From an uncultured virus (IMG/VR IMGVR_UViG_3300015607_003969) (Duplodnaviria > Heunggongvirae > Uroviricota > Caudoviricetes), in IMG/VR virus record IMGVR_UViG_3300015607_003969, positions 62,001 to 125,659 of that record: a stretch of DNA of 63,659 nt; one strand, given 5' to 3'. Of this stretch, positions 4,696 through 60,910 are shown piece after piece; positions within the stretch are counted from its first letter, which is position 1, and each line of letters opens with the position of its first letter. The notes below the pieces were generated by a model. That model searched no databases and was not told the DNA's origin. It was given only the letters and a program-made list of their open reading frames with translations. The position numbers and the translations under genes were made by a program.

Positions 4696-5522
4696 CTCAC
4701 AACCCGTTGAACAATGACCCCGTACCGTTGCCCAGAAGCCTGGAGGAGCTGACAGGTACCGCACGGATCGTCGTGTGGCGCCTTGCCAAGCAGGTGCTCA
4801 CCGATGAGGAGCGTGCTCCGCTAACGCCCCTCCCCACCGCAGACATCATCAACGCTCTGTGGAATCTCCTGGTGAAGAAAAATCTGGTGCCCGCTGCTGA
4901 GGGCGGGGATGTGCAGGCCCCGGCAGAGGTGCTGCGAAGCGTCGTGGCCTCTCGCGGCGCGATGATCACGGAAGAGGGTGAAGATCCCTCCGAGGAGGGG
5001 TCTCCGGACCAAGGGACGCCTTTGCCAGCGCCTCCACCGCCCCCGCGGCCCGAGCCCTCCCCGCCTGCGGCGGCTATCAGCGCCCCACCGCCCCCTCCTG
5101 CTGCGACGCCCGCCTCAGAGGTCGTCCGGACTCCACGCGTGCGCAGGACCAAGGCCCAGATGGAGGCCGCCCAAGGTGGGCCTCCGCCCCCGCCCGCGGC
5201 TGCGCCGGACCCGCGGATCGACCAGCTCGTGAGCCAGGTGTCTGAGATCGTGGTGCAGCTCGGGCGGCTCTCCACGCTGGCGAATATGATCAGCAGCCTG
5301 AACGACGAGCTCGGCCGGAGGATGGAGCACTACCTGGAGCTCTTCACCCGATCGAACACCACGATGGCGTCCGGCATCTCTGACCAGCTCCGCAACGAGA
5401 TGCGCTCCATGATCGGAGACCTCAGCGAGGAGATCCAGCGCATCAAGCTCGTGCAGGACATCATCCTGGAGGACGCCCTCGGTATGAACGCTGAGAGCGT
5501 CAAGCAGCGCCTGAAGAGCTAA
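4686..5522 (+). CDS. Hypothetical Pro-rich/coiled-coil protein
   Basis: GTG with GAGG RBS; polyproline linker, RRTKAQ motif, C-terminal coiled coil. Confidence 0.7.
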   Translation: MPIAHNPLNNDPVPLPRSLEELTGTARIVVWRLAKQVLTDEERAPLTPLPTADIINALWNLLVKKNLVPAAEGGDVQAPAEVLRSVVASRGAMITEEGEDPSEEGSPDQGTPLPAPPPPPRPEPSPPAAAISAPPPPPAATPASEVVRTPRVRRTKAQMEAAQGGPPPPPAAAPDPRIDQLVSQVSEIVVQLGRLSTLANMISSLNDELGRRMEHYLELFTRSNTTMASGISDQLRNEMRSMIGDLSEEIQRIKLVQDIILEDALGMNAESVKQRLKS

Positions 5523-5960
5523 CCGGTGGACGAGCAGCACGAAGCCGCCAAAGAGCGCCGTGCTGACTACGCCCGCCACAGCTCCAAACCACACCGTCTT
5601 GTAGAAGGGCTCGGGGGTTTGGAGCTGCTTTTCTAGCCCCTGAATCCGGAGCTGCTGCTCCGCGACAGCTTGCAGGTTCAGGTTAAGCTTGAGTTGCAAG
5701 GCTTGGGTCTGCCTCTGGAGCTCCACAGCGTCCAGCTGCTGTTGCAGCTCCACGTCTGTCTTCAGCCTCAGCTTGTACTGCTGAAGGTAGTTAGCCCAAC
5801 GCAGAGCAGTGCTGCTCTCGTAGAGTGCGCCAGAGAAGGGAGCAGGGTCCCCCTTCTGTACGATGACGATCTTATCCTCCCCAGGAGGGATCGGTTGCAC
5901 CTGGCCGTGCGCCAACGGGCTGTAGAGCAGCACGCCAAGCGCATAACCAACCGATCGCAC
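5520..5960 (-). CDS. Exported coiled-coil protein with C-terminal TM helix (spanin-like candidate)
   Basis: GTG with GGAGG; signal peptide, coiled coil, TM; ends at TTA 5520-5522 (code 11 would run to 5115, antisense through the neighbour). Confidence 0.62.
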
Positions 5961-28068: not shown

Positions 28069-30357
28069 TAAGAGCTCCGTGCTCCGCCTACTCTCGATGC
28101 GGGCCACCTCCTTTTTCAGCCGGTGCAGCCGCCGTTCATCATCTTTCTCAGCGGTGCCCTTGGCGCTTTCGAGCCTGTTGAGCGCCATCCGAGCGGTGTC
28201 CCGCTCCATCAGCGTGCGAGCGATGCCGCCTGCAAGATGAAACGGTGCTTGGACAGCCATCAGAGGCAGGGCGTGCTTTGGCTTTCGCGACTCGATAATC
28301 GCCAAGGCCGACCCCAGAGCCTGCCCCTTCAGGGCTGACTTCAGGGACTGCGCCACCAGCCCCAACCCAGAGAGCTCGGCCTGGTCACGCACCTCTGACT
28401 CCCTGGAAGGCTTTTTCGCTATCGCTTTAGCCAGGTTCTTCGGGTAAGCGTCCTGCCGCTTGATGTTCTGGTTAGCCAGGATATAGCTGACTGGGGCCGC
28501 GACAACCTGCGTGCCCAGTAGGTTTGGGAAGAAAGAAGACCTTCCGGTGTGAGGCAGCCAGCCCGCAGAAGCTGTGGCCTGTGTGGGCAGAGCGTATCCG
28601 AGGGTGGCGAGGGTCTTCGTACGCAGCTCAGAGGGCTCTTCGTACTCGGCGTCGGCCTTCTTCTCGTGGTTGGGGAGCAGGTCGCGGAACTGCTTGTTGA
28701 GCGCCTCCTTCTGCTTGCTCATCATGTTCAGGTACTGATCGACCGTCTCATCGGGCTTCCGGTTGAAGAGAAACTGCCCCGCACGGTCAACCAGCCCCGG
28801 CTTGATGCCCGAGAGGTATTGTTCCACGTGTACGTTGCGCTCGCCCTCCGGCAGGTCGTCGTGAGACTTGAAGCGGGCAGCACGGCCCTCCACCTGCTTC
28901 AGCTTTTCAGCATTCCAGTGGGGGTCGAGTAGCTGCACAAGCTTGGTCCCCTTCAGGTCAAGGCCCTCTCCACCCGCACTGCTGAGCAAGAGGGCTTTGA
29001 GCTTGTTTTCGTTGTAGTCCCGCACCATCTGGTCGCGGTCCTTCTTCTTCATCTCGCCCGTGAACTCCCCGAAGGGGATGCCAGCCTCCTGGAGCTTGGC
29101 CTTGTAGGGGTTGATGCCGGCGTCCAAGAAGTTGGAGTAGATGACTGCCTTGGCGTTGGGGTCCTTGTCGATCCTGCTCTTCAGCCGCTTGAAGGCCTCG
29201 TCAATCTTTGGGGAGTGGTTCAGCTCCTCCGAGTAGGGGGCCGTCGTGTTGGCGACCTGCCTTGGCGCGGTAAGGAAGCTGCCCATCTGTGCCAGCTCCT
29301 TCTTGTTAGGCGGCAAACCTCGACGGACCTTGGCCGACACCCAGCTAGGGGCCTGCCCCATGAGGGTGTCGTAGACGTCCTTCTGCTGCGGAGACATGGG
29401 CACGACCACGTCCTCGCGGGTCACGTCGGGGAAGTGGTCCTTGCTGCCCGGATGGTAGTCCACGTACTTCGACAGGATCTCACGCAGCTCAGGCGCGTTC
29501 CTCTCGTTCAGGACGGGAACTTCTCCAGGAGCCACCCCCATGAGGTGCTCCTGGATGAAGCCAGGACTCACCTTCTTGATGCCGATGTATTTACCCTCGA
29601 ACTCAGGACGGTCCATAGGCAGGATCTTCTGCTTGGCCGCCAGGTTCACGAGCGGGGCGATGTCCGCAGGGTGGTTGTAAAAGGGAGATCCCGTGAGCAG
29701 CAGACGCTTCTCTGCGTCTGTGGTTTTCATGGCCTGGAAGGACGCACTGGTGTGGTCCCTAAGCCTATGTGCCTCGTCCACGACGAGAAGGGGGTTTGAA
29801 GCAGGGGAGCCATCCAAGGCAACGCGCTGCACGGTCTGTAGCGTGGTTTTGGGGGGAGTCCCCTTGATGTGCTTGCGCTGCTCCTTGGCGTAGTTCTCCT
29901 GGAGGGCCGCGGGGACCACGACGGTCGCAGGAGACTTGAGGGCGTCCTGGGTGGCGATGGCCGAGAGAGTCTTGCCTGAACCAAGTCCATGGACCACGAC
30001 CAGTCCCGTCTGGTTGGGGTCCTTCATCCTATCCACGACGCGCTGCTGGTGGGGCAGCAGTTCGGTCCTAAGCTCAGCCGCCTTGAGGAGGGGGCCGAGG
30101 TGCCCAGATACATCTTCCCCCGAGGGGGTCATATGCGGGGCTAGAAAAGTGGCGACCACCGGCCGCCTCTTCTTTCCGACGCGCTTGATCGCAAGGTACC
30201 CGTGGAGCTTACCCCCCTCCTCCACACGCCAGTGGTACTTTTCAGCGCCATCTTCCGGGATGGACTTCAGCTTAGGGCGAGCAGCCGCTAGCAGCGTGTC
30301 CGGGTCCAGGGTGGAACGCTCCCGAACGCGGTCCTCGGGGTGCCCTGCTTCTTTCAT
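28069..30357 (-). CDS. SNF2-family helicase/ATPase with extra N- and C-terminal domains
   Basis: LLPHQ, HGLGSGKT, VVDEAH, LLTGSP, AGGEGLDL, DPHWN, QVEGRAAR; ends TTA-TGC-TAG (code-11 end 28063). Confidence 0.88.
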
Positions 30358-30378
30358 GCGTCAAACCTACCAGATCTG

Positions 30379-30451
30379 CGAGGGTGGGGGGACTCGAACC
30401 CACAACGCACGGGGATTAAGGCCGTCGTTCTGCCAATTGAACTACACCCTC
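30379..30451 (-). tRNA. Atypical tRNA, anticodon TAA (reads UUA), class I body
   Basis: GAGGGTG/CACCCTC acceptor; GTTC-AATTGGCA-GAAC D arm; ACGGC-CTTAATC-CCCGT; 5-nt variable loop; GTGGG-TTCGAGT-CCCCC; G73; no encoded CCA. Confidence 0.85.
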
Positions 30452-30507: not shown

Positions 30508-30912
30508 TAACACGGTGCCGAGATCCTCGTCGTCGAGGAGACCCTCCTTGTGTAGCATCTGCTTCTGCTCCTCCGTAAGAGTGCGGAGCAGCAGAGACAG
30601 CATTTTGGTCCGCGCCCCCGTGTTGGCGTTGTGCAAGGCCTTGAAGGTGTGGACATCAACCTCCCGCACGCACCAGCGCCTGTGTGCGTCGTACGCCTTC
30701 TCGTAGGCGTCCGCAGGGGACAGCCTGCTGTAGATCCCGGGATACGTGGACTCCAGGCGGTTTTTCACCGCCAGGAGAGCATCTCGGTACGTGTAGAAAA
30801 CCTGCTGAGCACGATCGAAATCTAGCTCAGTAGTGTCCAGGACGATCCACACCTGGAACACAGTGCGGGCCCTGAGGGGGCCTCTGTTGTACCCATCTTC
30901 CTTATCAGCCAT
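30508..30912 (-). CDS. Hypothetical protein
   Basis: GGAGG RBS; ends TTA-TAA. Confidence 0.65.
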
Positions 30913-30925
30913 CAAACCTCCGTGA

Positions 30926-31246
30926 TCACAGCCTCAGGGCCAGGGGGAGCTTGCGTACGAGACGCAACGCCTCCGGGCCCAGACACAAGGCTGTAGTCTC
31001 GTTATTCCTGTCAGGCTCCCGAAACTGCACAGAAGGGATCTTGTGCAACTGCGCAGCGAGCTGAAGCTCCTTGAGGTGCTTCTCGCTCGCAACGGACAAC
31101 AAGGCCAGCGTGTTGCTGCTCTCGTACCAGGAGCGGATAAGCTCAGGGTAGTGGATAAACATCTCGACCAGGGCATGGCTGCTCTGCACCGCCTGCTGTC
31201 CTGGAGAGAGGTCCCCCCTCACAACCTGGTAAAGTTTCGGGGCCAC
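30926..31246 (-). CDS. Pth2-like peptidyl-tRNA hydrolase
   Basis: LYQVVRGDLSPGQQAVQSSHA...W...FREPD...TALCLGP...KLPL matches the PTH2 pattern; GGGAGG RBS. Confidence 0.82.
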   Translation of the reverse strand: MAPKLYQVVRGDLSPGQQAVQSSHALVEMFIHYPELIRSWYESSNTLALLSVASEKHLKELQLAAQLHKIPSVQFREPDRNNETTALCLGPEALRLVRKLPLALRL

Positions 31247-31535
31247 CCTTGATCCTCCCCTTCAGGCCGGAGCACCAGGCGGAGAACTCTTCGAGAGGGA
31301 AGTCCTCTTCAGGGAGCAGAGGGGGATCGCTGCAAAGGGTAAACCTGACGTAGGCGGCAAGTGGCGTTCTGCCGTAGTAGGTGGAGGCGTGGACCCTGCG
31401 CTCGATGGTCTCGTGCGCCCTGCCGTGGAGGAAGGCGAGGAAGAGAAGGTGCGCACGGGCGCAGAACCCAAAGGGCTTTTCTTGCAAGCGCTTATGAAGC
31501 GCCTTTTTGAGCTGTTTCTTGTCGCTGTCGGTCAT
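31230..31535 (-). CDS. Hypothetical phage protein
   Basis: ARAHLLFLAFLHGRAHETIE; AGGAG RBS; ends at TTA 31230-31232 (code-11 end 31143). Confidence 0.68.
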
Positions 31536-31582
31536 CTGTAGATCTCCTGGCTGGTTGATGGGTGCAGAACCAGGGCTACAGA
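31535..31582 (-). promoter_or_regulatory. RBS-occluding hairpin (putative translational attenuator)
   Basis: mRNA UCUGUAG (31582-31576) pairs with CUACAGA (31541-31535, includes the A of AUG); CCUGG pairs with CCAGG over the AGGAG RBS. Confidence 0.6.
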
Positions 31583-31614
31583 GGGGGGCCTCGCGGTAGG
31601 TGGATTAACAGCAT
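31576..31614 (-). CDS. Putative leader/arrest peptide MLLIHLPRGPPL
   Basis: atg ctg TTA atc cac cta ccg cga ggc ccc cct ctg tag; RGPP motif; intergenic. Confidence 0.6.
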   Translation of the reverse strand: MLLIHLPRGPPL

Positions 31615-31628
31615 GGGGGTAAGGGTGC

Positions 31629-32243
31629 TCATGAATCCTCCACTGTCAAGCCGAGCTCCGACATCATGGCTCTGCCTTCTTCCGTACAGAAGAAGGCCCC
31701 CTGCACCAGGATCGTCTGGTTCGTAGGTTCAGCTAGCTGGTGCAGGAGGTACTTGCGGCGCAAAAACCTGGCGAGATGTGGCGGCTGATGGGGGAGGTCC
31801 CAGCGGGGGTTGTTTTGGTGGTAGAGCTGCGCGCGGCGCGTAGAGGGGCGCTTCGCAGCTTTGGGCATATCCAAGACGTCCACGTCTACGGTGTGAAACG
31901 TATCAAGGATGATCTCCTTCGTCACCTCGCCCCGGGTAAGAACGATCTTCCGACCCCTTAGCGGCAAGTGCGCGCTGAACCCGTAAAAGGGCAGCGTAAA
32001 GGGCCCGTCGCAAAGCACCACAGGTTCATACCGCGCGAGGGGCGTCACAACGTTGTGGTGCAGGTTCTCCCTGAACAGGTGGGCGATGTGTGCCAGAGCG
32101 TTCTGGGTGTCTATGTAGACACCGTGCACGGACACGATGAGAGGTTTGTTGCGGAACATCTGGAGTAGGTAGGCCTCCAGAAGCCGCTGCTTGTTAACGG
32201 AAGAAGCTCCTCGCACCTCCCCGTACAGTTTTGACAGATCCAT
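31629..32243 (-). CDS. Hypothetical protein
   Basis: 204-aa ORF with GAGG RBS. Confidence 0.62.
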   Translation of the reverse strand: MDLSKLYGEVRGASSVNKQRLLEAYLLQMFRNKPLIVSVHGVYIDTQNALAHIAHLFRENLHHNVVTPLARYEPVVLCDGPFTLPFYGFSAHLPLRGRKIVLTRGEVTKEIILDTFHTVDVDVLDMPKAAKRPSTRRAQLYHQNNPRWDLPHQPPHLARFLRRKYLLHQLAEPTNQTILVQGAFFCTEEGRAMMSELGLTVEDS

Positions 32244-41726: not shown

Positions 41727-42470
41727 TAACTTGAACTTGTTGTACGCCTCCACGATGGCGGTCCGGTGTTTGCTGACCGTGGGCTCGTCCATGCCGAGCC
41801 TACGGGCGATGTCCCCCGTGCCCAGCACAGGGTTTGTCGGGTGGAAGAGGGTGTCGAACACCCGTTGGGTCTCTGGCTTGAGGTGCTCCCGAAGCAGAGG
41901 CAACACCTCGGAGTCCCGGGAGATGCGCCCGTGAACAGCGTCACTCTCGAAGGACCCTGAGGGGATGTCGGCCACGAGACGCCTGAGCACCCCCTGGACG
42001 CCCTTGGGGGTAAGTCCCGCCCGAGTAGCGATCTCCGAGTCGGTAGGCTTGCGGCCAAGCTCGTCCTGAAGGGATGCCTGGGCTCGCTGGACCTTGCCGA
42101 TGTTAGCCGCCACGTCCTCCGGGATCCGCGCCACGTTTTGCGAGCGGATCACATCACGCAGCGTACTCTGTAGCCGGTTCTGGACGTGAGTGTTCAGCCC
42201 GGCCTTGGTCGGGTCGTAGCTGTGCAGCGCGTTCACGAAATGAATCATCAGGCTGGCGTCTATCGCCTGGGGCATGAGCATCCTGGCGCCCCCCGAGTAG
42301 TCCCCACGCTTACGCTCCAGCAGGGGACGAAACTCGTTGATCAGGGGCTGAAGCTTCTCGGGGTCCTTGCCCGACGACAGCCACTCTGCGTGCAAACGTT
42401 TGTGGTAATCCCCCCTATCCTCAGCGAGCTTGGCGACCACAGCGTCAATGTTGGCATCTTTGGAACCCAT
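41727..42470 (-). CDS. Phage RNA polymerase sigma factor (sigma70 family, FliA/SigF-like)
   Basis: NALHSYDPTK (region 2), ARIPE...LQDELGRKPTDSEIA (region 3), DIARRLGMDEPTVS HTH; ends at TTA 41727-41729 (code-11 end 41703). Confidence 0.83.
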
Positions 42471-44201: not shown

Positions 44202-47200
44202 TAACCCTCGGGTGGCGACAAATGTCAGCGCGTCAACGTAATCTCGCACGGCCTGGAACCTACGACCCCTAACATCATACTTTTTGCGGATGATGTCGTC
44301 AGACTTCGTGGCGCCCAGGACTTCGGTAATCTCGGGTGTGACCAGGCCAAAGGCGTCGTCATAAGGCCCGAAGGCCCTGGAGTGGAACCCCTCGATGCCG
44401 CGCAGCGCCTTGATGCCGCGCACATCAAGCTCAAGGTCGCTGGTGCCGAACATGTCTGGCAGGGATGCGATAGGCCTGTAGGTGAATGCGTCGGTGAAGG
44501 CCGACTGAGATAGGCCCCCCTGGATGATGTAGGAGTAGACCAGGAGCCAGTACCTGACCGCCTGTTCAACGCTGGAGTTGATGTCGAGGCTTAGCACAGC
44601 GGGGGAGATACCCTCCCGCTGGTCACCCTCCTTGTTCCCAGTTGCGTTGACAATGAACTGGTCCCGGGCCAGCTGCCCGGCAGACCCAACGCTGACCCCA
44701 TCCGGATCTCCGACCTGAGCCTTGTCCGTGATCGCGCCCGTCCGGAAGTAGTGCTGATATACCTCTCCGATGCTGGCCGGGTGCCAGCAGTCGTCCACCC
44801 AACCCGGGCGGATATACTCCTCTGCCGGCAGGTCTACGGTATCCCTGCGGTACCGAGGGATATCTTCGAAGATGAGGTAGCCCCGGAAGACGACCATCTT
44901 GTTGGCGCCGCGGTCGATAGCAAGCTTAGGGCTCACAGCACCTAGCCTCTCAGGCACACCTACGCGGGCTTCCCCGTCAAGGGAGGGGTCGCCCTTGCGT
45001 CGAGGCCCCGTGTAGATCGGAAAGGTACCCCCCGTTACCCCGGGTTCGTCCGTCACGTCGACAACCCGGGTAATGATGCCGTAAGCCGGGCCCAGGGCCC
45101 CCACCTTGGGCTTGACGTCCGCAGCGACGTACGTGTTGCGATGGGCATCCCCGCCCAAGCGCTTGAGGATGGTCTGGTCATCGGAGATGGCAGGTCCAAA
45201 GAACTCCGTGGACTCGTCATACTCGCGGGCGTACTGCACGCCCACGCTGGTCCGAGCCTCCTGGAAGCTCAGGCTGTGGGTGACCTGCGTAAAGCTTCCC
45301 AGGTAGTGGGTACCCAGAAGCTTGGCGATCTCCGTAGGGGTAGCGCCCTTGTCCCGCTGCCTCTGCTGGTACGCCTCGGCCTTCTCCATGTCGACATAGG
45401 TGTCGAGGATCAGTCCCGGGAATCCGGGCGCCAGGTAGGGGTTAAAGAAGCAGTTCACGGACAACTGCCGGGCCGCAAACTTCTGCTTGAAGTAGAGGTA
45501 GTTCGCCGAGCGCTGGGCCAGGCCGATCTTAGGTTGTTTGCCGTTAACCTTGCCGTCCCGGAGGGCGAAGATGTTGAGCTCACCCATCTTGGTGAACACA
45601 GGCAAGATCCCCGTGTAGAGCTCGTGCTCCATGATGTCACGCTCAAAGAGGGCCTGAAGCGTGCTCCTCTTCCCCTTCTGGGTACGGGCCCGGGGGGCGA
45701 AGAAGAAGGTGTCGAAGAGCTCGTCTTCCCCGAAGAACTCATCGTGCAGCTTGAGGAGTAGCCGGGTAGGCTCCTGCATGTCGACGCGCTGCGTCTGCAA
45801 GCTGTCGTACATGTTGGGGAAGATAACGTTGCACCTGGGCGGCGCCGCAAACCAGATGTCCGGGTGAAAGATGTGCGAGTTGAGTCTGGAGGGGGTTCGC
45901 GTCTTGGGGTCCGAGACGTCCACCTCCACGCTCTCCAGCTTCTTCAGGAGCACGCGGGCCTTGTTGAGCGCGACGACAAGCTTGTCCCTGTCGGGGGACT
46001 TCACAGCCCACCTTCCGCCCATCTTGCGGATCTGCTGTACGGCCGTACGGAGGAAGCCAATGGCGCTGACCATGGTCTGGTCCACCACCTTGTTCCTCTT
46101 GAGTACAGGGTCCTGCCTGGACAGGTTCCTGACCGTCTGGAGCGTGGTGAGGTACTTGCTCAACCTATCGGCAGCGGCCTTCCCTGCGGCCGCAGGCACG
46201 GAGGCGAAGCTCTCCTCCAGGTTGGAGGGCTCTGCTTTCGCGTGGACCTCCTCGCACATCTTCTGCCCCTCGATCGCCAACGTGTAGATCTTGTTGAATC
46301 GAGGTATGGCCGACAACGGCTTACGCTCTCGCCCCAGCGTGTCCCCCTTTGTTCCAGGGGAGAAGTAGGGGCTTGGGATAGAGCTGGTCTGGTGAAAGAT
46401 GATCGCCATCAGGGCGTTGAGGACCGTCCGGATGGATACCTGATCTCCCAGATTGCCCAGGGTGCGCCCGAACATGTCGTCGTACCCGCCGCCCAGCAGT
46501 CGACTTACCGTGCGATCCTTGGGCCAGGCGGTGAGCATCTGGCTGATGTGCAGCCGGAGCTCAGCCAGGCTGTAGAAGATGTTCTGGCCCTGAAACTTGT
46601 CGTCCTGGACGTAGCACCCGCCGATGGCCTCGATCATACGGATGAGGCCGCCGAGCATCCCCTTCAGGGCAGGGTAGTTGGCGCTGGGCAGGTGCAGCAA
46701 GGACGTTACGATCTCGCCTGGGCTGCTCAGGAAGTCCGTGAGCAGGTTGGTGCTGCCTCCGGAGAAGACCGCCTTCAAGCTAGGCCCGAAGAGGTCGGTG
46801 TTGTTGAACTGGTACGCATAGTCCCAGTAGTTCGATAGATCGAGGCACTGGAGGACCAAGCTCCTCGTCGTGGGCTGTTTGACGTACTGGCGTCCGATGA
46901 TCTCGCCGGCGAATAGAAGCTTGTATCTGCTGTTTCTCACGTCCTTCGAGAAGGCCGCATCGTTGCCGGAGTCGAACTCGTCTTCCGCGGCTCGCCTCTC
47001 CCTGGCCTGCTCATACACCGTAGGGTTCTCAGGCTTCGGGTTCTGAGAGTCCTTGCCCCGATACTGTCGAAGTTTGCTGGCGGGCTCGTTGTGGTCGAGA
47101 AAGAAGAGGTGAACCAGCGTCCTGGGCAGTAGCTTGGCGCCCAGGGCCGATGCCGGCATCTGTAGCGTGCATTGTGCCGGCGCATTGGGCTGCGCCGTTA

Positions 47201-47279
47201 TCTCCGCGGAGATAACCGGCACCTCGATGCCCTCCAGGAAGAGCCGGATCCTTGCTGGACGCCCTACGCCTACAGACAT
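44202..47279 (-). CDS. Putative baseplate hub-like protein
   Basis: About 1025 aa downstream of the tape measure; LLFAGEI...LVLQCLD, FNPYLAPGFPG...VTHSLS; ends TTA-c-ATG (code-11 end 44190). Confidence 0.68.
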
Positions 47280-47280
47280 G

Positions 47281-49149
47281 TCACTCCTTCAGGGTGCCCG
47301 CAGCGGTATGCACACCGAAGGCCCCCTTTCCCTGCACAGTGTCATCTTGCGCGTTAAGCGCGCCTACGGACCCCGAACCGCTGAAGAAGCTGCCGCCTGG
47401 CGTAGGCCCGTACGTGTACTTGAACTTGTAAAGCGGCTCCCCATCCGGCCCCTTGCCGCCGGTCACGCTGTAGGGCGACGTGCTTTCCTGGCCTCCAAAG
47501 GGGGACCCGTAGGGGGAGACGCCTTGCGTCCCGAACAAGTCTCCCTGGTCTTGGGCCTTCCCTCCGTACCCTGGACCGAACCCGCCCCCGAGAGCTCCGC
47601 CTGAAGATCCGCCTGCCTGGGGGGTGGTGCCCCATTGCTTGCTGTAGGTGTATCGAGAGCCAGCTCCAGGCACGCTGGGATCTGTCAGAGGATCCCTGCC
47701 GAAGGGGTCCGACTTATTCACACGAACCCCCTCGCCAGGTCTCCAGGAGACGAGACCTGTCTTGTACATGTTCTCTGCGGTGGGCTCCACGCCCAGGCTC
47801 TCCATCGCATTGGCCACGGTAGAGGGCAGGTCGTCCACCTCACCCCCGACTCGAACCCCTGTCCTCTCCTCGAAGATAGCAGCCGCCTGCTCCGGCAAGG
47901 TCCCCCGGTACTCATCGTAGTTGTCTACGATCCGACTCCTCAGCGGGAAGGTGCGCTTGGGCTCCAGGATCTGCCTGGCGCCTCCGGGAAACACAATCTT
48001 CTGCGCGCTCTCCACGAAGGTGGAAAGGTCCTGGCCCACGTAGGGGGTGCTGTAGAGGATCGCATTGCGCAGAGCGTCCGTAAGCGAGGGGGGGTCTACA
48101 CCGCCGCCTCGGTTGGACACAGCGTTCAGAGCGTCGATAGGGTGCCCCGAGGCAAGGAGCTTGGCGGCACCAATGGGGTCGCCCTGCTGTGACAGGTGCA
48201 GGGCCTTCTTGGCCTCCTCCCGGAAGCGTTGATTGGCCTGGTCCACGGTCTCGTTATCGCCACGGACAGCGCCCACAGCACCCTGGAAAAAGCTCTTGGC
48301 GAGGGGGATCAGGTTCTGCCCCTCCATGCCTACGCCGAGCTGGTCCAGCGCGTACTGCTTCTGAAGCCTCTGTGCCTCCTCGATGGACTGCACCTTGGCG
48401 ATCTCTTCCTGGATTTGCACAGCCCCCAGCTGCTTCAAGTACCTGATGAAGAGGGTCTGGGCTGCCACCTGGGGGCCCCCCTGAACCTCGAAAGCAAAGG
48501 TCCGATCGTCGCGCTCGTTCAGGTTCGCAGGCAGTACCGCGCTTTCATGGATAGGGAAGTAAGGATCCCCGATGGCGGACACGTTCGCGTAGTTGGTCAC
48601 GAACATACGGAACTGTAGCTGCACGATGTAGGGGGTGTCCGCGCTCTTAACGGCCGTGGCGTTGAGCGGGTACCCCTCGATGATGGTGTCATCGTAGTGC
48701 AGGTATGCTCGGGCCCCCGACTCCACGAGCTGGGTGCCGCGGAGGTACTTGTTGTAGTTCTCCCACCACTCCGCCTCCCAGTTGAAGTCGTTGGTGTTGA
48801 GGAGCAAGGCAGAGACGTCGATGAACCGGGGGGACTCCCCAAAGAAGAAGACGAGGGGGGAGGAGAAGGTTTCGATGATCTGCTGCCGCTCCATCCGAGC
48901 GTCCTGAACGCTCTGGAGGAGGAAATTGGCGTACCCCCGGCCCTCGCCCTCGGCCCAGGAGGAGTCCACCAGTTTGATCTCCGAGCCATCCGCCCGAACG
49001 ACCCGGAAGACAGCGTAAGTGTCCTCCTTCACCTCGATCCCCCGGTCAGGACGCCTGACGTTCTTCACCCCCGCCCGGCTGCGGTTATCCAGGCTCTTGC
49101 GGAAGCGCTGATCAAGGTCCTCGGTCACCAGCTCGAAGTAGACGGCCAT
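47281..49149 (-). CDS. Putative baseplate/tail-tube initiator-like protein
   Basis: NFLLQSVQ..RMERQQIIETF...FFFGESPR; lies between the tape measure and hub-like genes. Confidence 0.65.
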   Translation of the reverse strand: MAVYFELVTEDLDQRFRKSLDNRSRAGVKNVRRPDRGIEVKEDTYAVFRVVRADGSEIKLVDSSWAEGEGRGYANFLLQSVQDARMERQQIIETFSSPLVFFFGESPRFIDVSALLLNTNDFNWEAEWWENYNKYLRGTQLVESGARAYLHYDDTIIEGYPLNATAVKSADTPYIVQLQFRMFVTNYANVSAIGDPYFPIHESAVLPANLNERDDRTFAFEVQGGPQVAAQTLFIRYLKQLGAVQIQEEIAKVQSIEEAQRLQKQYALDQLGVGMEGQNLIPLAKSFFQGAVGAVRGDNETVDQANQRFREEAKKALHLSQQGDPIGAAKLLASGHPIDALNAVSNRGGGVDPPSLTDALRNAILYSTPYVGQDLSTFVESAQKIVFPGGARQILEPKRTFPLRSRIVDNYDEYRGTLPEQAAAIFEERTGVRVGGEVDDLPSTVANAMESLGVEPTAENMYKTGLVSWRPGEGVRVNKSDPFGRDPLTDPSVPGAGSRYTYSKQWGTTPQAGGSSGGALGGGFGPGYGGKAQDQGDLFGTQGVSPYGSPFGGQESTSPYSVTGGKGPDGEPLYKFKYTYGPTPGGSFFSGSGSVGALNAQDDTVQGKGAFGVHTAAGTLKE

Positions 49150-49472: not shown

Positions 49473-52400
49473 TAACTGCCCTCCAGGCCTCGGGGCTCCA
49501 CCGGGAGTGGACTTGCTGGCCATGGTGGCGAGGTGGCCCACGGCCGTCTTCATGTTGCTCGCGATATCGTTGAGGTACTTGAGTTGGGGGTCGTTCATCT
49601 CGTTCTTCTTCTGGCGCTCCTCCTGCTTCTTCTGGAGCTCCGGGTCTCGCAGGGCATCGCTGATCAGCTTGGTACGCTTGCTGACGTCCTTCTCGTCCTG
49701 GATACCCTTGAACTTGGCCATCAGCTCAGCATCGCCCGCGGTGGCGGTCTTCAGGCGAGACTGGAGCGCGTCCAGCTTCTCGGAGTCAGCCGGGGTGGGC
49801 GGCCCCTTCTCGGTGATCTCGTCGATCTCCTTCTGGATCCCTGCTGCGGCATCCCCTAGGCCAAACTGCTCGCTCAGGTAGGAGGCGATCTTGCCACCCT
49901 TCATGAGGGCTTGAGCGTCCTGTTTGCCGACCTTCAACCCGAACAGATTGGCTACGCCGATGTCCCCCTTCCTCTGTAGGGTACGCTCCGTCCTGGAGCG
50001 GAACCCGGCCATCTGACCTAGCTGGTCGGCAAAGCCGAAGGCCCCCTCGGCACGAGCTGCGGAGGAGAGCTTCCGCTGGTCAGCGATGCTCATGTTCCAC
50101 ATCGCACTCTCAAGATCCCCACCCGCGGCTCCGATCTCCTGGATCTTGGCAGCGGTTTCCTTATCCGTCAGGCCAGGCGACATCCCGCTGGCCTGTAGGC
50201 TCACCAATCCGGCCATCTTCGACAGGACATCGGCGCCGCCTGCGCCCGCAGAGGCCTTTATCCTGTCCAGGGAGGCCTGATCGATGCCGCCACTGCTGTC
50301 CATGAACCCCACGCCCTGCATCCGCTGCTGCTGCGCAAGGGCACCTCTCCCATACATGCGAAGAGATTCACGCCGGTCGATGGCCTGTTGCTCCACCAGA
50401 GCCCTGCTAGCGTCCTGGATCATGCCGCGAGCTGTGCCGGCCCCCGCCCCATGCTCCTTCTCGATCGCCCGGATCTGGTCCTCGGTGAGGTCCTTTCCGG
50501 TCTTGCCCCGTTCGCGGATGGCGGCATTGGCTGCCATCATGCTGCGCAGCATGGCTTGCTGGCGTTTAACGCTCTCGTTGTCACCGGACATGCCGTTGAT
50601 ACGCTGCTGCAAGTCAGAGGATATATCTTCCCCCGAGAACATGCGCTGGCTCAGGCTCATACCTTCCTTGGACTTCAGAAAGGTGCCGATAGCCGCACCC
50701 TCTCCAGGGGATGCCGCGTAGCCCAAAGCCCCCATGGCCATGTTGGCCAGATAGCCCTGGCTCATGCCGATCGCCTTACCGACCTTCCCCAGGAGGCCCA
50801 TGGGGCTGGCTTCCAGGGCCATGTTCCCGTACTTGCCCAGGTGGCTGCCCACTTTCTGCTGGATCACGGTACCGATGCCTCCGAACAGCATCTCTCCGAT
50901 GGCGCCACCCTTGGCCACGTAGTCTCTACTGCCTCGCTCCCCTAGGGCCGCCTTGCCGTAGCTCTCGACGCGCTCACGCTCCGTCATGCCACTGCTGCCC
51001 ATCAACCCGAGCCCAGCGGGAAGCTGAGACACTGACCCGATCTTGGTGGCGTCGGCAAGGCCCATCCCCTTCTCAGCGGCTGCCAGGGCAGCGTAGGCCT
51101 GCTCGGTGTCTCCGCTGTTCAGCATCTTGAACAGGGCAGCGGCATCCTGGTTCCCCACGGACTCCTTGGCCAGGAGCTCCCGAACAGCGTTCATCCGGGC
51201 GTCCCCCTTCATGTTGACCGTCCCCGCGGCGTAGTTGGCGTTGAGCATGCCGGAGAGCTTGGCCCCGAGGGCGCTGGCCTCCTTGTTGCCGAAGTTGCTC
51301 ATACCCCGAGAGGCCGCCATCGCGCGCTCAACGCCTCGCTGCACACCTGCATCGCTGTCAGCGCCGGTGAAGAAGCTGCCGAAGCCCCCTGCCGCCACCT
51401 TATCCTGGATGGACTGGCCGAAGCCCGCGCCCATGAAGCTCATCTTCTTCGTGAAGGTGTCGTACGTCATGCCCCCACCCGTGTTGGAGGAGGAGACGGC
51501 GCCCAAGGACTTGGCAGCAGCGGAGATCCCGGGGCCTCCCGCTCCAAGCGCCGCCATGGCTTTCTTGTCCCCGTGCAAGACCTGCTGGTAGGTCTTGTCG
51601 ATGTCCCTGGACGCCTCCTGGATGATCATGCCCCCCTGCTTGGTGAGCCAGTCCTCGATGAACCCCGTGAGATCGGTGTACATCTGCTGACCCACTGCCT
51701 GGAGCTTGCCCGTGACCACCTCCCGAGTGTGCTCCATGCTCCGCTTGACCCCCTCCACACCAGAGGTCTTGCGGTAGGTCGCCATCTCCTGGCGGTACGC
51801 ATCAGTCATCTGCGTACGGTTTGACTGGTCCTGGATACGCGGCATGTCCCGCAGCATCTTCACCGCGTTCTCCAGCTCATCCATGCCGAGGCCAGTGTGC
51901 CGCTGCGCAAACAGCATCTCGCGGTCGTTCATGGTGTTCACGTCGATGCCCCGCTTGCCGGCCCACTGCATCAGGGCCATGGCAGGGATGTTCCCACCGA
52001 ACTGTTCGAGGGCAGCACCACGAAGACGGCCCTCGTTCCGGATGAAGTCGGCTCGACCAACCTTGTTCAGGTTGCTGTAGGCGTTCTGCATGGTGTCGCC
52101 CGTGCCCATATCACCGGACATCCAGGCGCTGACCGAGTTGGCGTCAAGCTTGCCGTCCGCCCCCGCGATGGAGGCCAGAAAGCGCCTACCCTTACCGTTC
52201 CTCAACCAGGCCGCAGAGTTCTGCATCTGGCTGGCGGCGAAGGCTTGCCTGCCCTCAGCCCCCCACATGCCCGTAGCGTTGTAGATGTCTTCCTCGTTGA
52301 GGACACCGGACTCCAACGATAGGCCGATCTGCCCCAGGGTGCGCATGCCTCCGAAGGCGCCTGCACGGCCCCTACCCCCCACAGCACGGCTGATCTGGGA

Positions 52401-53207
52401 GCCTATGCTGGCGGCACCAGACAGCTCGCTCATGGCCAGGTTGCCCCCAAGGGAGTAGGCCCGCATCTCCCCCGACATACGGAGCTGGTCTGACGTGCGG
52501 AACACGCCTGAGTTGCGCATCTGGCTCATCTGCTGCTGAGCCCCCTCCAGCGTGGTGCTCATCTCCCGCGCCATCGTCTTGGCCGTCTCGAACATCTCCT
52601 TGAACTTCCTGGAGAAGTCCTGGACGTCGCGAACCCCGTTCGCCATGCCCATCCGACCCATGTTCGAGGCCAGCGCAGAGAGCTCCCCCATGCTGGCCAT
52701 TTCCCCCGAGGGGCCCACCTGCTGGGAGAAGCTGCGCATCTGCTGACCAATGACGCCCAGCTGCTGGTTGTTGAAGCCCTGGCCTGAGGGGGTCAGGAAG
52801 TTGTAGCTGCTCCGCATCTGCTGACCAAAGGCCTGCTGCTGCTGAGCTCCCTGCCACACCTGGCCTGCCGCCCAGCTAGCTCCAGACATGCCCGCACTGG
52901 CCAGGCCGAAAGTGCCCAGGCCGGCAGCGGCTGCCATGCCCGGGCGAGCCCACCCAAAGGCGCCCGCAGCACGCATGCCGAGGCTCATGGGATCAAGTCC
53001 CGCTAGACCTAGGCCAAGTCCCATGGCAGGTACACCTACGGCCCCCGCCATGTTCATCGCCCTGCCCGCCAGCCAAGGAGCCCCCATTTGAGGATCCACG
53101 CTCTTCTGAAGGGCATCCGAGAGGAAGCTGCTCTGCTGCTGAAAGGCAGCAGTCTGTTGCTGGAACATGCCAATCTGGCCAGCGATCTCGGAGCTCATAA
53201 GAGGCAT
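49473..53207 (-). CDS. Tape measure protein (putative)
   Basis: About 1244 aa, Ala/Gly/Met/Gln-rich helical, upstream of baseplate genes; ends TTA-g-ATG (code-11 end 49464). Confidence 0.78.
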
Positions 53208-59494: not shown

Positions 59495-60253
59495 ATGCTA
59501 GTTCAAGCCGATGTCATGCGCCTGAAGAAGGTGCTAACCGACACCCAGTTCCGCGCACTCAAGGCCTACCTACAGTCGAGGGACATCCACTTCAAGAGTA
59601 CGACCGCACAGCTCATCTTTTCGTGGACCAGGAAGGACCTGCTCCATGCGCTAACGTCAGGCAATGCAGCAGTGCGCAAGACGCTCAGCCTGGGCGTGCT
59701 CCCTTACTTCGATCTTGCCGGAGAGGTCTTCGAGGACTTCGAAGACCTGGAGCTCCGGGGCGTAACTCTGGCGGCAGCTCGGTTTCAAGCAGGCGGCTCC
59801 CTGGTCCTCGAAGGGGTGAACTTCTTGCACGGGTCCGTCGTGGGGGTGGATACCTTCGCCATGGATGGCGCGATCTTCAGGTCGGCTAACGTGCGGAACA
59901 CCTCTGACCTACGCATAAGCAGAACGAGCATGAGCCACGCCTGCATCTGGGAAATAAACAACTCTGTGGACTTGAGGCAGTGCGACCTGTCCTTCGCACG
60001 AGCCCACACCTGGTCGGTGTGTACGCCGTGTGTCGTCGAGGAGTGCGACCTGCACGGCATGTCACTTACCGACGTGCGCTTCAAGCATGAGGGCGCTCTG
60101 GTGTTCCGTCGTTGCAATCTCAGGAAGGCCGTGTTTGCTAACGCAGAGCTCGGGGTAACCTTCGAGGACTGCGATCTCACGGGCATGTACTTCAGGGGGC
60201 CCGCCCCCGCGGGCTGGATCCGCGACACGACCCACCGGTTCAGGCTAGAGTTA
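59495..60253 (+). CDS. Pentapeptide-repeat protein
   Basis: CDLSFA, CDLHGMSL, CNLRKAVF, CDLTGM; ends at TTA 60251-60253 (code 11 fuses it to the next gene). Confidence 0.72.
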
Positions 60254-60256
60254 GCC

Positions 60257-60910
60257 ATGACCTACGATTTGCAGGTGGTCGAGGTGCAGAGCCTCCTCGA
60301 CGTGAGCAGGCTCGACTATGTACCTAACCTGGTGCCCACGAGCGTGCGCATCCAGGGGGGCCCCTTCGTGGGCGTGGATGAGGTTCGGCTGAACGACACC
60401 CCATCCCCGTCTTTTTACGTCCAAGATAAGTTCACGATCGTCGCCCAGGTGCCTCAAGGTCTGGCGGGGCATGAGCTCAGGGCCTCTGTGACCTCGTCGA
60501 ACACGCCGTTCTCCGACAAGGTGCTCCTCCGTTTCAGGGCAGGCAAGCAGACCCGTCGTGTCCAGGGCTTGCCTCGGCTGGTGCAAACCTTTGTTCGATT
60601 GCTGATGATGACCCCGGGCACAAACCTCAGGTACCCGTTGCTCGGCGGTGGCCTCCTTTCCGTGGCTAGATCTGCCTTCAGGCCAGGCAACGGGATGGAC
60701 CTGCGCTCTGCTGCGGTGCTGGCCGTGCGCCGTGCATCGGAGCAGCTGATCTCGCTTCAGGCTACGAATACGAGGCTCCGCAGGGAGGAGCGGCTCATGC
60801 GCGCCACCGTGGAGCGCTGTGCCGTACAACCGCAGCTAGGTACGCTCCTCCTGGAGATCTCGCTCACGAGCCAGACAGGGAAGAGCTTTCTGGCCTCCGT
60901 GGCCCTTTGA
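60257..60910 (+). CDS. IPT/TIG plus gp25-like baseplate/sheath-initiator protein
   Basis: VRIQGGPFVGVDEVRLND...TIVAQVP; VQGLPRLVQTFVRLLMMTPGT...PLLGGGL. Confidence 0.7.
   Translation: MTYDLQVVEVQSLLDVSRLDYVPNLVPTSVRIQGGPFVGVDEVRLNDTPSPSFYVQDKFTIVAQVPQGLAGHELRASVTSSNTPFSDKVLLRFRAGKQTRRVQGLPRLVQTFVRLLMMTPGTNLRYPLLGGGLLSVARSAFRPGNGMDLRSAAVLAVRRASEQLISLQATNTRLRREERLMRATVERCAVQPQLGTLLLEISLTSQTGKSFLASVAL

Follow-up and report, generated by a model that had tools for sequence, protein, structure and literature searches.

An uncultured Caudoviricetes virus (IMG/VR IMGVR_UViG_3300015607_003969) carries, upstream of a gene related to peptidyl-tRNA hydrolase 2 (Pth2), a small leader that is best explained, and probably so, as a readthrough-gated translational switch. 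Comparison of homologous loci has shown that it belongs to a conserved cassette composed of a promoter-like box, a short ORF gated by an in-frame stop, an RxPP motif, a predicted hairpin, a partner gene, the Pth2-like gene and a tRNA with an anticodon that corresponds to the gate. The window, i.e. the whole stretch of 63,659 nucleotides analysed here (G000:C1:62001-125659), comes from a virus record with 62% GC and an estimated completeness of 67%. The gate in this case is a TTA codon.

The leader minigene (31576..31614, minus strand, like all the cassette features given below) is an ORF of 12 codons and 39 nt, probably leaderless, that follows the family pattern and reads M-L-[TTA gate]-I-H-L-P-R-G-P-P-L-stop. 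As an earlier note on this DNA had described, it has TTA at codon 3 (31606..31608), where homologous leaders have TAG, TAA or TGA, and the RGPP codons downstream (codons 8-11, 31582..31593), which we infer to be the arrest site. A TTGACA sequence, the putative -35 box, is located at 31644..31649, 35 nt 5' of the leader ATG, and a weak -10 candidate at 31627-31622; the consensus promoter scan called no promoter at the leader. An ATG at 31632 would open the same reading frame as well, and the start at 31614 is favoured because its distance to the box falls within the 34-39 nt that separate TTGAC from the start in the family. The R-[A/G]-P-P core of the RAPP-like arrest peptides is thus encoded by a small ORF that precedes a gene of the same orientation, and its amino acids are kept in 46 of 48 homologous loci with synonymous codons that differ at all four positions. 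The features of a leader monitoring Sec or YidC, among them an N-terminal localisation signal, were not found, the ORF having 12 codons and the genes downstream being the partner and the Pth2-like gene rather than sec or yidC. One strain contig with a depth of 4.6 has one C fewer in the six-C run of the Pro codons, converting RGPP to RGPL, which may be an assembly error. The TTA of the leader had also been described as the only internal in-frame one found. Literally this does not hold, since under table 11 the codon also occurs inside gene 31535 (codon 102 of 130) and inside further ORFs, but in substance it does, as the other internal TTAs resemble gene ends once TTA is taken as a stop.

Downstream of the arrest motif, folding predicts a hairpin (31535..31582; 5' arm 31582-31568, 3' arm 31552-31535) that hides the AGGAG ribosome-binding site (RBS) of gene 31535 (31548-31544). 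It folds as had been claimed, and of the AUG it is the A that is covered. There was no U-tract call at the hairpin and it was rejected as a terminator. When this locus was folded alone the z score was -1.84 and 13 of 200 shuffled sequences were equally stable, while RGPP appears 31 times across the six frames of genome G000. From this locus alone, neither the ORF nor the hairpin convincingly beats chance; that leader and hairpin are not random follows from their conservation in homologous loci.

Pth2-like loci were drawn from viral and metagenome collections, the metagenome scan being represented by the best 80 of 269, and 112 of them were analysed, with the near duplicates L004, L005, L030 and L031 excluded. 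Homologues of gene 31535 were found beside the Pth2-like gene in 63 of the 112 (iterated profile; profile-profile probability 95%). A tRNA reading a stop codon is present within the fetched DNA in 69 of 99 distinct loci, and in 46 of the 56 for which at least 2.5 kb downstream were available. Furthermore, in 27 of the 99 an in-frame stop interrupts the Pth2-like gene or immediately precedes it, so that the module tRNAs must permit elongation at least sometimes. Leaders were counted over 53 distinct partner loci, of which 48 extended 150 nt or more upstream. A leader (start, in-frame stop and RxPP), usually leaderless, precedes the partner gene in 47 of these 48. R[GAS]PP (45 loci) or RPP (one locus) was found within 345 nt upstream in 46 of the 48, against 159 of 1920 control windows, counts that, like those below, overstate independence because the loci are related; the pattern start-gate-[LIV]-RxPP appeared in 27 of the 1920 controls. 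The 47th leader, in L014, is located beyond the 345 nt, and L009 has no leader upstream of its partner gene. Typically the leader consists of a start, 1-10 codons, a stop, L, I or V, a few codons and RGPP, and two stops were found in 5 of 34. TTGAC lies 34-39 nt 5' of the leader start in 34 of 43 loci, a spacing that implies a leaderless mRNA.

In all 41 loci that show both, the gate agrees with the anticodon of the adjacent tRNA, according to a hand tally that corrects the automatic calls at L015 and L023 and takes the tRNA of L098 to be UUA (Lys in ARAGORN). The pairs are TAG/CUA (33), TAA/UUA (5), TGA/UCA (1), TTA/UAA (1) and a four-base TAGA/UCUA (1). Six of the 47 leader loci have no tRNA in range and were left out of the tally; outside it, TGA/UCA was found in L204 and TTA/UAA in L212. 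A further viral set gave 33 partner loci, of which two were contigs also included in the first. Here a gated leader was present in 11 of the 12 loci with a Pth2-like gene, and among the 21 without it only L190 has a clear one. The earlier note had proposed to look in homologous loci for the minigene and had named a lack of conserved minigene or stem as refuting. These loci do keep the minigene with its RxPP, and likewise the spacing and a predicted hairpin over the RBS. The UUA sensor put forward there, off when UUA terminates and on when it is read through, is supported in its logic by the standard stops that fill the TTA slot and match the anticodon. It is not specific to UUA, which is one of five gates of what appears to be a general sensor of stop readthrough.

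Some variants of the module deserve description. Eight-base anticodon loops (UCUA, CCUA) were found in the module tRNAs of L080, L102, L066, L019 and L039. In L080 (leader near 2870-2940; tRNA 5531-5604, opposite strand) and L102 the RGPP is reached only via a four-base TAGA step, which suggests natural quadruplet decoding. In Bxz1 (L177 3971-4351) and Myrna (L328 1471-1833) a start codon is followed immediately by TAG and then by the Pth2-like frame, behind a TTGACA box and with a CUA tRNA downstream, in the absence of RGPP; the annotations begin after the TAG. They show a minimal, amber-gated form of the module.

The geometry of the hairpin was also conserved. From the first Pro codon to the AUG there are 52 nt in this leader, most homologues having 52-65 nt, and in many of them the RxPP Pro codons also begin the anti-SD arm. 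Folding predictions gave a median cost of opening the RBS of 11.9 kcal/mol, falling to 4.3 kcal/mol with the footprint of a stalled ribosome (6.6 kcal/mol for a shuffled arm). In 44 of 46 loci the footprint made opening cheaper by 2 kcal/mol or more, and in the other two the anchors had been mis-picked. For the leader in the window the predicted cost is 10.5 kcal/mol when the ribosome terminates at TTA, compared with 4.5 kcal/mol when it is stalled at RGP/P. By this prediction it has the arrangement of an attenuator, an RBS-hiding hairpin with its 5' arm beneath the stalled ribosome. RNAalifold, applied to 35 leaders in a plain alignment, gave no consensus structure, which counts against the switch; a cross-pairing test, in which the arms were cut regardless of structure (mean arm identity 31%), was used instead of a covariation count. 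Own arms paired better than foreign ones (median -17.5 vs -11.9), and for 24 of 43 loci the own pair was among the best three of 43, the locus studied here being second. In addition, the strain contig of depth 4.6 has two changes in the stem, both preserving the pairing, and two more in the loop.

The partner gene (gene 31535, 31230..31535) codes for 101 amino acids if the TTA at 31232-31230 is a stop, and its product is all-helical and of no known family. No match was obtained for the protein in Pfam, for any of 39 members of the family in PHROG, or for a phage in GenBank queries. The structural model (pLDDT 92.8) reached a best Z of 5.2 among 48,161 chains and had no match at E <= 0.001 among viral structures, results that establish neither a family nor a new fold for the modelled protein. 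Single-protein scans with gene 31535 and a helicase retrieved the sister genome as sole relative, the metagenome scan with P0091 and the GTDB scan with A5 retrieved no relatives, and the ESM Atlas search gave no usable match. A fusion of the partner domain with a domain of 370-400 amino acids that has no assigned function was found in L009 (3490-4992), L080 (2994-4523) and L102 (1580-3172).

As had been claimed, gene 31535 precedes a Pth2-like gene (30926..31246), which overlaps the TTA end of the partner by 17 nt and matches PF01981 (E 9e-10; 39.2 bits vs a curated cut-off of 23). The lysine of the GK motif is catalytic in Pth2 enzymes. The GK and DAG motifs of the solved enzymes align to GQ and EPD in the Pth2-like proteins, so that, with the GK motif absent, their hydrolase activity is putative. 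Downstream come an uncharacterised 134-aa gene that ends in TTA (30508..30912) and a short-arm tRNA with anticodon UAA (30378..30451), at the same position as the stop-reading tRNAs of related modules. This tRNA was alone in passing the threshold of the Rfam scan. As expected of a suppressor tRNA, its anticodon is complementary to a codon that ends genes in the same genome. Its discriminator is G (A in one strain contig); among 75 module tRNAs G was found in 29, A in 26 and U in 16. The window tRNA is the one of the 75 with U37, and shares with the L009 tRNA (5316-5391), also UAA, a C31-C39 mismatch.

In this phage UUA is likely to be a true stop, going by the bias of TTA to gene ends, the distances between genes and a comparison with the sister genome. 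TTA was found in 13 of 1296 positions within the last 12 codons and in 13 of 32975 interior ones (24.5-fold, p 2e-12; next codon 5.5-fold). With TTA as a stop it ends 32 of the 131 predicted genes of G000, including some of 760-1240 aa; in 18 of the 32 the next start is within 20 nt, with six TTATG stop-start overlaps, and the codon log-odds pass from +0.13 to -0.27 after TTA. The TAA that follows the final TTA of gene 30912 has become CAA in the sister genome, which also has a deletion downstream. TTA ends are commoner on the strand of the structural genes (21/52 vs 11/79, p 8e-4). Minus-strand genes of the window ending in TTA include 28069-30357, 44202-47279 and 49473-53198, and several table-11 ORFs, such as 59495-60910, are split in two at TTA. 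No release factor domain was found in G000, G001, G002, G004 or G005, records that are mostly incomplete. The short variable arm was tried as a marker of recoding and rejected, as 2 of 34 matches to short-arm tRNA(UAA) were in this module and many were in genomes where TTA is sense; short-arm tRNA-like genes with UAA anticodons (L143-L176) are widespread in TTA-sense viral contigs. In the sister record G002, a scan of 129 of its 168 predicted proteins found DnaB, a primase, a terminase and a multisubunit RNA polymerase, the polymerase as a fused beta/beta-prime protein with inteins (L060 32-6766) and the terminase also bearing an intein. The window itself has a sigma-70 region 3 protein (41727-42470) and, at 47281-49149, a sub-threshold Pfam match to Binary_toxB (E 0.011) that is probably noise.

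A second TTA-gated leader was found in L212, a phage-like contig (G003:C4) within a GTDB MAG. TTGACA lies 37 nt before M-P-L-N-K-F-F-[TTA]-L-H-P-P-R-G-P-P, the partner ends in a TTA overlapping the Pth2-like ATG, the Pth2-like gene has an internal TTA and there is a short-arm tRNA(UAA). TTA is end-biased in the contig (23/1620 vs 29/31425) and falls at most one codon from the stops of capsid-region homologues in 7 of the 8 ORFs listed, with one TTA and 35 CTA in 4067 codons aligned to these homologues. Compared with G000, the Pth2-like protein is the only one shared among 121. The contig is related to G001 (66/136 proteins), another TTA-stop phage with a module, a UAA tRNA and end-biased TTA, in which no leader was found within about 790 nt upstream. 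In relatives TTA is sense in 44 of 49 loci, including five contigs with TAG-gated modules. From this comparison, gate, anticodon and genome code shift together in two unrelated lineages. A capsid-based scan gave no new TTA-stop genome among the 49 loci. The MAG is titled Lysinibacter sp. and the large TTA-stop phage contigs (C1 and C4 of G003) are probably misbinned in it. It was rejected as the probable host: in its contigs with release factors TTA is read as Leu (82/31111 interior codons, without end bias), and the PAT and SPF motifs of its RF1 and RF2 are ordinary.

The switch that we propose would work as follows. In the infected cell UUA would be terminated, most likely by the release factor of the host, so that by default the ribosome would end at codon 3 and the hairpin remain closed. 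When the phage tRNA(UAA) has accumulated, or termination is impaired, the tRNA would beat termination, and the ribosome reading through would arrive at RGP/P, stall, cover the 5' arm and free the RBS. The partner and Pth2-like proteins would then be made and could handle the stalled or dropped-off peptidyl-tRNAs that arise from readthrough. The in-frame stops within many Pth2-like genes might act as a second gate. The logic of the switch (closed by default, then readthrough, stalling and release of the RBS) is likely. The clean-up of peptidyl-tRNAs as its purpose is offered more tentatively, as a possibility somewhat short of even, and is in keeping with what has been suggested for phage PTH2 (PMC7824862). 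RGPP was the strongest arrest motif across contexts (PMC12992588), and the arrested state has RAP in the P site with Pro in the A site (PMC10951233). Arrest at RxPP depends on context (PMC12992588, PMC10951233), and the length of the nascent chains at RxPP, here only about 10 residues, counts against it. The weak -10 candidate, the RGPL of the low-depth contig and the lack of a leader in G001 also speak against the switch.

Among the alternatives the best survivor, still unlikely, is that the cassette is a release-factor-independent termination system, in which the tRNA reads the stop, the Pth2-like protein and its partner release the chain in place of a release factor, and the RGPP leader senses readthrough and keeps the balance. 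Scarcity of the release proteins would lead to readthrough, stalling at RGPP and more of both proteins, as in prfB, and the phage could itself create a UUA stop inside a host with the standard code. Self-regulation of this kind would suit the in-frame stops of the Pth2-like genes, and it is consistent with the lack of release factor domains in the five genomes, with the TTA ends on the structural-gene strand and with the module and UAA tRNA present in every TTA-stop genome examined. That last association is biased, as these genomes were reached via the module, and the independent search among the 49 loci added none; the records without release factors are, as said, mostly incomplete. Most modules, besides, are gated by TAG in genomes that use this codon as a normal gene end (75 of 415 gene ends, 25 loci). 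Pth2 enzymes act on free peptidyl-tRNA, not within the ribosome, which also argues against this reading. The contig G003:C1, which has no module, was rejected as a test of this model, being probably the same phage as C4. If termination did work in this manner, one anticodon change would make UUA a stop, providing a mechanism for sense-to-stop recoding in phages.

Still less likely is that UUA is an unassigned or hungry codon, similar to the bldA case in Streptomyces, at which ribosomes pause until the phage tRNA brings an amino acid, with the leader reporting the supply of tRNA. The logic of the leader would be unchanged and the tRNA, with its G or A discriminator, could carry Leu. However, a quarter of the genes, the 760-1240-aa ones included, end at TTA, with the six TTATG overlaps, and a release that depends on rescue is ill suited to finishing them; furthermore, all the other gates are true stop codons. 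Slightly less probable again is a family switch that is real but decaying or bypassed in this copy, the operon being driven by read-in from upstream genes. The weak -10, the RGPL of the low-depth contig and the absence of a leader in G001 would fit, but all the elements are in register, the gate has switched to match the tRNA, and both stem changes in the strain preserve pairing (2/2), the two others being in the loop. A chance ORF with a chance hairpin in GC-rich intergenic DNA, to which the z score and the 31 RGPP would point, is extremely improbable given the 46/48 loci vs 159/1920 controls and the gate-anticodon agreement in 41/41.

The readthrough-gated switch can be compared with several known systems. 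In ermCL-type and secM-secA attenuation a ribosome stalls on the leader, the hairpin melts and the RBS is freed; the input there is a drug or secretion, whereas here it would be the decoding of a stop by a co-encoded tRNA. The prfB gene (RF2) autoregulates at an internal UGA by frameshifting inside the gene. As in prfB, an in-frame stop would report termination efficiency and control a translation factor, but prfB has a fixed codon, a frameshift inside the gene, and neither tRNA partner nor arrest motif. The RAPP/RGPP arrest peptides ApdA, ApdP, ApcA and SecM, and the Streptomyces RxPP uORFs, likewise have RxPP upstream of the regulated gene, and their stalling, too, is expected to expose an RBS downstream (PMC12992588, PMC10951233). 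The tested peptides are of greater length, in most cases carry localisation signals, and arrest the ribosome until they are released, while the leader described here has about 10-20 aa and a motif reachable only past an in-frame stop; the consulted parts of PMC12992588 mention neither phage, readthrough nor suppressor. The readthrough tail of AMD1 also combines readthrough with subsequent arrest (PMC13025110), but it is eukaryotic, located at the end of a coding sequence and without dedicated tRNA or hairpin.

Recoded phages carry suppressor tRNAs and code-change modules, and recoded stops have been proposed as regulators (bioRxiv 10.1101/2021.08.26.457843). In contrast, the genomes with the module retain the gated codon as an ordinary stop, and the apparent target is the leader together with the Pth2-like gene. 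UUA is a stop in labyrinthulean and Marsupiomonadales mitochondria and in peDinoflagellate plastids (NCBI table 23; PMC12574857), where TTA is limited to gene ends, as it appears to be here. These organelles have mutated release factors, and the Marsupiomonadales no UUA-reading tRNA in the sections consulted, whereas the phage has a UUA-reading tRNA and no release factor was found in it. A literature search, mostly of open-access main texts, found arrest peptides, suppressor tRNAs and organellar UUA stops separately and no description of the leader or the cassette, nor did the parts consulted of PMC9262239 and PMC4131195 contain anything further on either. The mechanism of the leader is made of known parts (arrest motif, RBS hairpin), while the stop-codon input and the cassette are new, and a stop gate tied to a co-encoded tRNA fits no known system that we found.

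The sensing element of this leader would be an in-frame stop paired with its own decoding tRNA. It offers a candidate target for the suppressor tRNAs of phages with standard-code genomes; for the amber tRNAs of XacN1 one study identified no target (PMC5852040). In addition, it provides a second line of evidence for UUA as a stop outside organelles, since the gate slot is a stop elsewhere in the family and is TTA in two unrelated lineages with TTA-ending genes. The mechanism is directly testable, the leader having only 39 nt and the cultured mycobacteriophages Bxz1 and Myrna containing a simpler, amber-gated Pth2-like gene together with a CUA tRNA.
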